This document shows positions 12,001-15,000 of a stretch of DNA of 51,815 nt, piece by piece. Made by a program: the position numbers. Numbering within the stretch: the stretch's first letter is position 1; each line of letters starts with the position of its first letter. This DNA is from a virus (Duplodnaviria > Heunggongvirae > Uroviricota > Caudoviricetes): the IMG/VR virus record IMGVR_UViG_2563366933_000008; one strand, given 5' to 3'.

Positions 12001-15000
12001 TCTCGCTGTGTTGCATCGGAAAAGTGATTGCCGGAGGCGCTTATGGCAAAAGTATTTACACAAGAAGAGCGGGAAAAAATCAAGGGACAGGTTGTTGAGC
12101 TAGTACGCCGGAGTGGGCGCGAGACGTTACGGCAACTGGAAGCCAAGACAGGTGCGACAAGATATCTGATGAGCGTTCTCGCCAGAGAGCTGGTTGCCAG
12201 TGGCGATGTATACAACTCTGGCTACGGGTTATTCCCGTCTGAACAGGCTCGTAAGGACTGGCAAAATGCCCGCAAAAAACTATCTAGGGCAAAGGTGAAG
12301 AAACCATCTGTGGTTGATCCGGACCTTATCTGGTCATTACCTGACGGAGAAATACGTCGTTATGACAGGCACCAAAACATAATTTGCTGTGAGTGCCGGA
12401 AGAGCGAAGTTATGCAGCGCATACTGGCATTTTATCAGAGAAATTTTCGTTATTTATAGACGTTACTCGATTAAAGAGCATTAGTTCAGATGTGAATTGA
12501 CATTTTCACGGCACAGGATTGAGCTAGCGTGGTTGTCTGCTTTGTGTCAAAAGCAGATATTACCAGATTTAGACATCTATTCCCGATAGCCCTGCTCTGA
12601 TGCTACACTCTGTGCTATTTTCATGACCCCAATAAAAATATTTATGACTATTGCTGATTTCAAACGGCCTAAATTGGAGCTCCCAAACGGGGCAAACAAA
12701 CTACTACTGCACTCTTGCTGTGCTCCATGTTCCGGTGAAGTGATGGAGGCGCTTCAGGCCTCGGGAATCGACTATACCATCTTTTTCTACAACCCGAACA
12801 TTCATCCTCAGAAAGAGTATTTAATTCGTAAGGATGAGAATATTCGCTTTGCTGAACAACACGGCGTGCCATTTATTGATGCTGATTACGACACAGACAA
12901 CTGGTTTGAACGTGCCAAAGGAATGGAATGGGAGCCCGAGAGGGGGATCCGTTGTACCATGTGTTTTGACATGCGTTTTGAGCGGACAGCGCTGTACGCT
13001 GCTGAAAATGGTTTCAGTGTGATCAGCAGTTCACTGGGCATTTCACGCTGGAAAAATATGCAGCAGGTTAACGACTGTGGGCGGCGAGCCGTCGCGCATT
13101 ATCCGGGCATGGTGTACTGGGATTATAACTGGCGCAAGCAGGGCGGCTCGTCCCGCATGATTGAAATCAGCAAGCGCGAAAAATTCTATCAGCAGGAATA
13201 TTGTGGCTGTGTGTATTCTCTGCGCGATACCAATCTACACCGCAAATCTCAGGGACGCCCTCTTATCAAAATTGGTCAACTCCACTACGGTAAAGAAGAG
13301 AAGGAGTGATTTTATGGAGCACCTTTCTTATTGATTTCATATTGGCGAGGTAGCGGGAGTTAAGTAAAATTGCTGCGGGTGCTTGAGGCTATCTGCCTCA
13401 GGCATGAACACCAAAAGGCAGATAGAGAAAAGCCCCAGTTAACATTACGCGTCCTGCAAGACGCTTAACATTAATCTGAGGCTCAATCTATGCTGAACAC
13501 ATGTAGGTTAGCCTCTTACGTGCCGAAAGGCAAGGAGAAGCAGGCTATGAAGCAGCAAAAGGCGATGTTAATCGCCCTGATCGTCATCTGTTTAACCGTC
13601 ATAGTGACGGCACTGGTAACGAGGAAAGACCTCTGCGAGGTACGAATCCGAACCGGGCAGACGGAGGTCGCTGTCTTCACAGCTTACGAACCTGAGGAGT
13701 AAGAGACCGGGCGGGAGAGTAATCTCCCGCCACCTCTGATATGTCAGGCATCCTCAACGCACCCGCACTTAACCCGCTTCGGCGGGTTTTTTCACGTACT
13801 GTGGTTGTGAATACGATTGGTATTAGGCTATGCTAACAACATTAGCCTGACTAATTTTGTATTGACTTAATTTTTGTTAAAGAACAGGACGGAGAAGTAA
13901 GGGTACACCAATGAGCTACGCACTAAAAAAACACCCGCGATTGACTATTCCCCCTCGCGATAAAAGCGTTGTGGCAGCTCCGCGCCCGGCTATCGATGAA
14001 AATTGCACTCATCGTGAGCAGGTGAAAAATGCTTTCGATTTCGGTTTTTCTCGTTACGAGAAGGCAATGGAAGATCTTTCAAAAGTGTAATGATGGGTAT
14101 TGTGCTCTATGGCTGAGATTGTTGAAGGAGTGCACTACCTTTCGGTTGATGATCTTACTGAAATTAATCGCCTTTTAATTGAGCTTCAAACACCAGATGA
14201 ACCTGTTGGTGTGCTGAGTGTTGATAATTTAAGTTCTTCTCAGTCTCGTCCCAGTATGGTTCGATGGTATGAGCAAACCAACGACATGTTTGTACTGGCA
14301 TCGGTATTGATTGAAAGTCTGATTCAGAATCATCCATTTGCCAATGCAAACAAGCGCACAGCAATGATGGCTGGTGCGGTTTTTTTATTGTTAAATGGAT
14401 ACGAATTAACCGCACCAGGCGATGAAGTTGTGGAGATGGCTGAGGGGCTGGCCTGTAAAATTTATACACGAGAAGAGCTTGAAAATTGGTTGTGTTATTG
14501 GTCTCGTGCGTATGACAGTCGGGAATTATGTAAAACAGGCGCAACTATTGTTTTGTATGAAACTATCAAGCTTAAAATAGAACAGCAAAACTAAAGATGC
14601 TTCTAATGAAAACCCGCTTCGGCGGGTTTTTTGTTGCGTGCTGAATATGCAGGGTGAAAAATAACCATATATTTGATTATATACACAGCCAAAAATAAAA
14701 GTCATTGTACCTGCACATTAAACAATCAAATATACGACGTGAAATAAATATTTTTCAGATTAATATTTTTGTCTCTATGTGGATATAACCTTTTGTACTT
14801 ATAAACCTGGAGGCATCGTGGAAAAAATAAAGAAACTATTTAGTAGCAAATACGCAGTCATACGTCGTGATGACCTGTCAGTTATAGTCGAAATGGATTA
14901 CTTCCCTGAAACCCCAAAATCAATGATGTATCGTAATGGTCGAAAGGCAATTTTTTTACCGATGAGGGTAAGTGACATTATGGGAAATGATAAACTGCTG

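Follow-up and report, generated by a model that had tools for sequence, protein, structure and literature searches.

IMG/VR record IMGVR_UViG_2563366933_000008 is a 51,815-nucleotide stretch of viral DNA (Caudoviricetes), here called the window, in which a gene for a protein of 59 amino acids (aa) lies directly upstream of a gene for a 161-aa Doc-family protein. We conclude that these genes probably form a two-gene type II Doc toxin-antitoxin moron of temperate phages, in which the antitoxin is a minimal one without a DNA-binding domain. The window is 100% identical to chromosomes of Escherichia coli and represents a lambdoid prophage of that species at the Rac site. The coordinates of the gene pair and its associated features are given in Table 1.

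A Doc-family toxin with an intact active site

By homology and motif, the 161-aa product is a bona fide Doc-family toxin with an intact active site. It matched the NCBIfam model TIGR01550 (DOC_P1) with 120.7 bits (cutoff, 38.65; E = 3.8e-35), the Pfam Fic family (PF02661) with 45.3 bits (cutoff, 24), and PHROG 577, "Doc-like toxin," with E = 1.1e-48. An identical RefSeq protein is annotated as a death-on-curing family toxin. A preliminary description of this DNA had assigned the product to the Doc type from the motif HPFANANKRTA, and both the motif and these scores bear that out. The catalytic residues H75-P-F77-A-N79-A-N81-K82-R83 are intact. Across 21 homologs, positions H75, F77, N79, N81, K82, R83, T84, and A85 were invariant, so the histidine and the Lys-Arg pair, whose absence would have counted against the preliminary description, are conserved on careful alignment.

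The closest solved Doc structure was that of Enterococcus faecalis EFDoc (9VZC_A; E = 6.4e-14). The Doc protein of phage P1, which has 126 aa versus the 161 aa of the protein in the window, was distant (E = 1.8e-4 over 63 residues). The product also has a C-terminal extension (nucleotides [nt] 14487-14594, approximately residues 127 to 161) that reads W127-L-x-x-W131-S-R133-x-Y-D136-x-R-x-L140-C141, followed by a variable tail, with W127, L128, W131, R133, D136, L140, and C141 invariant. This extension of approximately 35 residues is missing from Doc proteins paired with AbrB-type antitoxins, and it co-occurs with an IPxRDK motif in the small upstream protein. A predicted model of the Doc monomer was poor, with a predicted local distance difference test (pLDDT) score of 51.8.

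A translated and obligate partner gene

The preliminary description placed the end of the small open reading frame (ORF) 18 nt upstream of doc, and its coordinates proved exact: the spacer occupies 14091-14108, and both ORFs are in one frame. To characterize selection, we compared the small gene with 12 homologs and counted differences per nonsynonymous (pN) and synonymous (pS) site. Values of pN were 0.12 to 0.25 versus a saturated pS of 0.67 to 0.96, and the C-terminal half was three times more constrained (pN = 0.096) than the N-terminal half (pN = 0.29). Length and reading frame are kept from Enterobacterales to Pseudomonas and Halomonas. Furthermore, the only upstream element kept across 10 cassettes was a GAGG/AGGG block at the Shine-Dalgarno position. 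Judged from this pattern of substitution, the small ORF is a translated protein gene under purifying selection, which settles the doubt about translation that the preliminary description had raised.

The small gene is also an obligate, co-inherited, and co-diverging partner of this Doc clade. A family member was found directly 5' of doc in 25 of 25 gamma-proteobacterial loci, whose genera include Providencia, Serratia, Yersinia, Xenorhabdus, Hafnia, Pseudomonas, Halomonas, Gilliamella, and others. The same arrangement held for all of the IMG/VR contigs compared (80/80), in which the small gene ended 10 to 23 nt before doc and every small protein matched the family hidden Markov model (HMM). 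Two phage isolates of Pseudomonas, Sirocco and LPPA56, carry the pair as well. Pairwise distances among the small proteins and among their Doc partners were strongly correlated in a mirror-tree comparison (r = 0.90), a value reached by none of 2,000 Mantel permutations. In two loci the small gene is intact while doc appears to be frameshifted: in Proteus penneri ATCC 33519 (L028, ~2992-3455) and Arsenophonus nasoniae DSM 15247 (L029, ~3004-3442), the doc ORFs end after 92 and 82 aa, respectively, and tblastn similarity runs on beyond those points. An intact small gene beside a broken doc is the order of decay expected of a toxin-antitoxin pair.

The small protein belongs to no curated antitoxin family

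To classify the 59-aa protein, we searched it against several libraries. There was no match in Pfam (E values up to 10), NCBIfam (E values up to 1), or PADLOC, and against the PDB (E values up to 10) the sole match was to 40S ribosomal protein S25 (E = 0.69), so that none was significant. The only library match was to PHROG 2208, a family of "unknown function." At the HMM level, the absence of library matches therefore rules out membership in Phd/YefM, MazE/AbrB, and YhfG, in agreement with the earlier view that the small partner does not look like Phd or YhfG. Likewise, no DNA-binding domain was found in the protein in any library searched, and residues 1 to 33 had no similarity to AbrB, ribbon-helix-helix (RHH), Phd, or helix-turn-helix (HTH) profiles. 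As far as profiles can tell, the 59-aa partner belongs to no curated antitoxin family. The partners listed for Doc/Fic toxins by Makarova et al. (2009) are AbrB/MazE, PHD, and YhfG. We found no description of the 59-aa family in the open-access papers searched, whether by protein accession or by topic.

A profile search run exhaustively over 1.84 billion representative proteins recovered 36 clusters at 50% identity. Of these, 35 are short proteins without a fused domain, with lengths of 38 to 95 aa as predicted and 38 to 62 aa after trimming of mis-called starts. The remaining protein, P0168 (1,274 aa), was left out of the family because it matched profile positions 6 to 33 only, and did so in repeats. 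The family consensus is M-[SG]-H-A-L-K-K-x-x-R-L-x-I-P-x-R-D-K-x-x-V-A-x-P-[RK]...H-x-x-Q-V-x-N-A-F-x-F-x-F-x-R-Y-E-K-A-x-E-x-L-[SA]-K-V. In the 59-aa protein, the N-terminal half (residues 1 to 33) is basic and proline rich and contains the motif RLxIPxRDK, and the C-terminal half is an amphipathic helix (residues 34 to 57). When modeled alone with AlphaFold2, the 59-aa protein was predicted to form a single helix over residues 34 to 57 (pLDDT, ~80), with the N-terminal half as coil (pLDDT, 62 to 70). We had considered the segment KSVVA as a mimic of the Thr382 region of EF-Tu, that is, as a pseudo-substrate, and dropped this idea because Ser19 is not conserved.

The C-terminal helix resembles Doc-binding tails

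More distant Doc proteins (~40% identity) from Symploca, Sphingomonas, and Mesorhizobium are preceded by antitoxins of the AbrB/MazE type (PF04014; TIGR02609, "doc_partner"), whose tails end in ...RY..AL..LA[KE]. Using hhalign, we compared 59 sequences of the small-protein family with 123 doc_partner (TIGR02609) sequences, with the reversed template and 60 column shuffles as controls. The two profiles aligned with a score of 23.2 (P = 2.7e-4), placing residues 7 to 58 on doc_partner residues 32 to 77. The reversed template scored 12.7, and the shuffles scored 9.2 ± 1.8 with a maximum of 13.6. The C-terminal half alone scored 22.7 (P = 4.1e-5; probability, 70%) against doc_partner residues 59 to 77, and the N-terminal half alone (residues 1 to 33) scored 8.3, which is no signal. 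At the level of profiles, then, the doc_partner signal comes wholly from the C-terminal helix. The preliminary description had suggested an unfamiliar antitoxin family. This holds insofar as no curated family contains the protein, and it needs qualifying insofar as the C-terminal helix is profile similar to the Doc-binding tail of doc_partner. In the full-length alignment, hhalign also set the N-terminal RLTIP against the second hairpin of AbrB-type proteins. As a remnant of the AbrB strand RVVIP, however, this segment is unsupported, given the score of the N-terminal half alone.

The 59-aa protein matched neither the TIGR02609 nor the PF04014 HMM. In NCBIfam, the protein in the window had no match up to E = 1, and divergent members of the family had none up to E = 10. 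The comparison with P1 Phd by hhalign scored 13.7, which is at background level, and there was no match to PF02604 (Phd/YefM).

Structures of known complexes are consistent with a Doc-binding role for such a helix. EFDoc is partnered by EFPhd (9VZC_B, "addiction module antidote"), which is AbrB-like and of the doc_partner type. The only part of EFPhd that was resolved, residues 52 to 79, forms a bent helix that occupies the groove of Doc (PMC13034048). In our own ungapped comparison, we set EFPhd residues 54 to 78 (HQKKLQQMMENSKQKHNELYKELVT) against residues 34 to 58 of the 59-aa protein (HREQVKNAFDFGFSRYEKAMEDLSK). Common to both are the family-invariant His34 at the start of the helix and Leu56 three residues from the end, although this correspondence is only suggestive. 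Equally suggestive, and no more, is an end-to-end ungapped comparison with Phd, which pairs F42, F46, and L56 of the 59-aa protein with Phd residues F56, F60, and L70, respectively. In the P1 and Salmonella systems, a C-terminal Phd peptide of 22 to 23 residues by itself binds and inhibits Doc (PMC9207808; PDB 3DD7 chain B). A protein that is little more than such a helix can therefore be a competent antitoxin.

The cassette is a discrete insertion between identical terminators

The preliminary description noted the same terminator hairpin on both sides of the gene pair, and we found the two 22-nt copies, AACCCGCTTCGGCGGGTTTTTT at 13771-13792 and 14611-14632, to be 100% identical. Each forms a strong stem-loop followed by a T-tract, and none of 200 shuffles folded as well. 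E. coli CD45 (L034) carries the same backbone without the cassette, with a single hairpin at the empty site. Relative to that site, the window is longer by exactly 840 bp (13793-14632), an insertion whose right end is the second hairpin copy. A terminator lies directly after doc in most cassettes, including those of other genera, and the CCCGCTTCGGCGGG stem-loop itself recurs in three of them (L012, L016, and L018). The arrangement in the window is most economically explained by recombination of a cassette with its own terminator into the identical hok terminator upstream, which makes the bracketing hairpins a scar of insertion and no regulatory device of the toxin-antitoxin pair. As a discrete insertion in a collinear backbone, with a terminator of its own, the cassette fits a phage moron.

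The regions 13711-13792 and 14543-14633 also gave Rfam matches below threshold, to isrK (25.7 bits; cutoff, 50), rsmX (34.2 bits; cutoff, 56), and istR (27.5 bits; cutoff, 45). We rejected all three as real RNAs; each match ends on the shared terminator hairpin and is probably driven by it. The only real Rfam match near the cassette is the neighboring sok RNA.

The gene pair travels as one unit among unrelated phage contexts. Here it occupies the nin region; elsewhere it was flanked by tail and baseplate genes or by tail tube and tape measure genes, or lay beside dinI/umuDC or integrases. No third conserved gene accompanied the cassette in the neighborhoods compared. The Doc clade with the small partner occurs in Enterobacterales, Pseudomonas, Halomonas, and Gilliamella and on at least 165 IMG/VR contigs. 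Within E. coli, at least 80% of a 1-kb query was present in 120 of 5,426 complete genomes (~2%).

The leader of the cassette

The cassette probably brings its own promoter, as suggested by an extended -10-like element in the leader. Its sequence pattern, TGGTATT(A/G), recurs 5' of the cassette in five other loci (L011, L012, L014, L017, and L019). We rejected TTGACT at 13862-13867 as a -35 box, since no -10 box stands at a suitable spacing. The leader also contains an imperfect palindrome, ACAACATTAG-N5-CTAATTTTGT, which could be an operator or a hairpin of the 5' untranslated region. As RNA its fold is weak (-4.6 kcal/mol; z = -1.6), and the palindrome is not kept in other cassettes. Significant palindromes of their own were found upstream of the pair in L009, L011, L013, and L023.

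A separate arrangement was observed in three loci from Providencia and Morganella (L006, L009, and L013). Approximately 60 to 95 nt 5' of the small gene, these loci have a near-consensus promoter consisting of TTGACT, a 17-nt spacer, and TATAAT, TATAAC, or TATAAG. The spacer is filled by an operator-like palindrome of 20 to 22 bp (TAATGAAA..TTTCATTA), of which the E. coli cassette has no conserved equivalent.

Proposed mechanism and alternatives

We propose that Doc is the toxic component of the pair. By analogy with the Doc proteins of P1, Salmonella, and E. faecalis, it would act as a kinase that phosphorylates EF-Tu and halts translation. The upstream 59-aa protein would be a dedicated antitoxin that has been cut down to its neutralizing module. 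Profile similarity and the predicted structure suggest that residues 34 to 59 would, on binding, form an amphipathic helix, probably bent, within the groove of Doc and thereby neutralize the toxin, in a binding mode that we liken to that of the C-terminal tails of Phd and the AbrB-type doc_partner antitoxins. Because the protein has no recognizable DNA-binding domain, classical transcriptional autoregulation would be improbable. More speculatively, the basic N-terminal motif RLxIPxRDK most likely contacts the clade-specific extension of Doc, since the two features co-occur, or may instead be recognized by a protease and so keep the antitoxin labile.

Several observations weigh against this model. 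The N-terminal motif, which is basic and strongly conserved, may have a minimal DNA-binding function or some other one. Significant palindromes lie upstream of some cassettes, that of the window included, which would fit an autoregulating antitoxin. A scan with the sigma-70 consensus found no plus-strand promoter in 13793-13910. Finally, the hhalign probabilities are modest (42 to 70%), and amphipathic helices can converge, so that the similarity of the tails may or may not reflect homology.

The first two of these points are the ground for supposing that the 59-aa protein is a complete antitoxin, in which RLxIPxRDK is a novel and tiny DNA-binding element (for example, a beta-ribbon made on dimerization or in a Doc-bridged complex) that autoregulates the cassette promoter through the upstream palindrome. 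The family-wide retention of the motif and its net basic charge speak for this, as do the unusual palindromes 5' of several cassettes, which in L006, L009, and L013 lie between -35-like and -10-like boxes. However, the lack of profile similarity in residues 1 to 33, the coil predicted by AlphaFold2, and the several prolines that break the segment all argue against a DNA-binding fold. In addition, only some loci have a significant palindrome, and these palindromes bear no sequence relation to one another, although the motif hardly varies. We regard a complete antitoxin of this kind as distinctly unlikely. Another alternative, in which the 59-codon ORF is untranslated and the upstream region is a leader or RNA element for doc, could draw on the bare annotation as a hypothetical protein and the absence of a domain match. 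It is effectively refuted by strong purifying selection at the amino acid level with saturated synonymous sites. The start codon, Shine-Dalgarno-like site, length, and reading frame are also kept, and the small proteins of the viral contigs match the family HMM without exception, so that we give this alternative almost no credence.

It is also conceivable, although in our judgment unlikely, that the pair is a phage device for abortive infection or superinfection exclusion, or a host-takeover kinase. The small protein would then serve as a sensor or regulatory subunit, and its displacement or degradation when another phage infects would free Doc. The cassette is exclusively phage borne and sits in moron positions, here beside the morons hok/sok and QueH. 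The Fic core is weakly similar in PADLOC to the candidate defense proteins PDC-S23 and PDC-S05 (E = 1e-3 to 1e-2), and no role has been assigned to the conserved N-terminal motif. Set against this, no PADLOC defense-system model matched the cassette proteins significantly, and our literature search found nothing on the family. Moreover, a defense function is compatible with neutralization of the toxin by the C-terminal helix and is not an alternative to it. A bolder synthesis would make the 59-aa family an undescribed class of stand-alone Doc antitoxin, in which IPxRDK stands in place of the DNA-binding domain, has co-evolved with the Doc extension, and serves in trigger sensing or as a degron, and would make the cassette serve abortive infection or exclusion instead of acting as an autoregulated addiction module. 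We consider that combination doubtful. A two-gene toxin-antitoxin moron with a minimal antitoxin remains our preferred reading.

Relation to known systems

The cassette most resembles systems in which a small gene precedes doc. Gene order is the same in the doc_partner-Doc pairs (TIGR02609), among them TasA-TasB of Bacillus thuringiensis pGI1 and EFPhd-EFDoc (9VZC), and profile alignment matches the doc_partner tail (...RY..A...L[AS]K) to the C-terminal helix of the 59-aa protein. In contrast, the AbrB-like DNA-binding domain of approximately 50 residues is missing from the 59-aa protein, which has its own RLxIPxRDK motif instead, and the Doc protein of the window has the C-terminal extension that doc_partner-paired Doc proteins lack. 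The Phd-Doc pairs of P1 and Salmonella are likewise phage borne and share the Doc catalytic motif. Phd neutralizes Doc with a C-terminal helix that becomes folded when bound, as we propose for the 59-aa protein. However, the latter has no Phd/YefM domain, whereas the N-terminal domain of P1 Phd represses its operon.

The class I Fic antitoxins VbhA and YhfG provide a further comparison, being small (55 to 62 aa), mostly helical, encoded upstream of a Fic-fold toxin, and free of a classical DNA-binding domain. Unlike these, the 59-aa protein and its family alignment lack the inhibitory motif [S/T]xxxE[G/N], and the toxin belongs to the Doc kinases rather than to the AMPylating Fic proteins. The 59-aa protein did not match the Pfam YhfG model, and BLASTP against a YhfG sequence gave no match. 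PaaA2, from the prophage system paaR2-paaA2-parE2, is a disordered mini-antitoxin of approximately 60 aa without a DNA-binding domain, which works with a separate regulator, paaR2, and a ParE toxin. By this description, PaaA2 and the 59-aa protein are alike as prophage mini-antitoxins without a DNA-binding domain, but no third conserved gene accompanies the doc cassette. In sum, the pair would work like Phd-Doc and doc_partner-Doc and is an uncatalogued and unnamed variant, not a new kind of system.

Genomic setting

The gene order of the prophage is ttcA-intR-xisR-ralR-recET-kilR-sieB-ydaSTUV, followed by QueH, hok/sok, and the cassette. Beyond the cassette lie DUF1367, YbcO, a Q-like gene, two tRNAs, lysis genes, trkG, and then P22-like head genes. 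A complete hok/sok type I toxin-antitoxin locus (13377-13702) is directly upstream of the cassette. It consists of an Rfam sok match of 119.6 bits (13377-13552) and a 51-aa Hok ORF (13547-13702; Pfam HOK_GEF, E = 1.2e-23). Two unrelated toxin systems thus stand back to back, with one terminator sequence common to both. Just 5' of hok, also in a moron position, is a gene for the tRNA-modifying enzyme QueH, an epoxyqueuosine reductase (12623-13309; Pfam QueH, E = 1.9e-65). Downstream of the cassette, a 70-aa ORF of unknown function (14818-15030; PHROG 1813) is part of the prophage backbone and not of the cassette, since it is also present at the empty site of E. coli CD45. Genes for tRNA-Thr (anticodon tgt) and tRNA-Gly (anticodon tcc) lie at 16887-17040, 3' of the Q-like DUF1133 gene, in the late-control region of the prophage.

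TABLE 1 Coordinates of the doc cassette and its features in the window
Feature	Position	Strand	Basis or remarks
Left 22-nt intrinsic-terminator hairpin; terminator of the upstream hok gene; left junction	13771-13792	+	-11.8 kcal/mol, z = -3.8
Inserted cassette (moron), 840 bp: leader, small gene, doc, own terminator copy	13793-14632	+	Both junctions aligned with the empty site (L034); start-to-start spacing of the repeats, 840 nt
Extended -10-like element TGGTATTAG, candidate cassette promoter	13818-13826	+	Recurrence in six cassettes
Imperfect palindrome in the leader	13836-13860	+	9/10 matches; reached by 0/40 shuffles
Shine-Dalgarno-like AAGGG, 7 nt 5' of the small-gene ATG	13899-13903	+	Sequence
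Small gene, 59-aa putative minimal antitoxin	13911-14090	+	ATG start; PHROG 2208; RefSeq WP_000119355, "hypothetical protein"
doc, 161-aa Doc-family (Fic-fold) toxin	14109-14594	+	RefSeq WP_000818163; clade-specific C-terminal extension, ~residues 127 to 161
Codons of the Doc catalytic motif HPFANANKRTA (residues 75 to 85)	14331-14363	+	Fits HxFx[D/N][A/G]NKR
Right terminator hairpin copy; cassette's own terminator; right junction	14611-14632	+	-14.9 kcal/mol

Implications

Doc is the textbook example of a translation-arresting kinase, and the model of conditional cooperativity was built on Phd-Doc of phage P1, where the antitoxin is also a repressor. The overall picture of toxin-antitoxin biology is unchanged by the cassette described here. 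In a widespread clade of phage Doc proteins, however, the partner seems to consist only of a neutralizing helix and an unexplained conserved motif. The cassette is a natural test of the minimal needs of a Doc antitoxin and of the way in which regulation proceeds when the module has no repressor domain. If the predicted helix binds as proposed, the 59-aa protein would offer a natural peptide scaffold of approximately 25 residues for the inhibition of Doc. Finally, the unannotated family PHROG 2208 could now be given a name.

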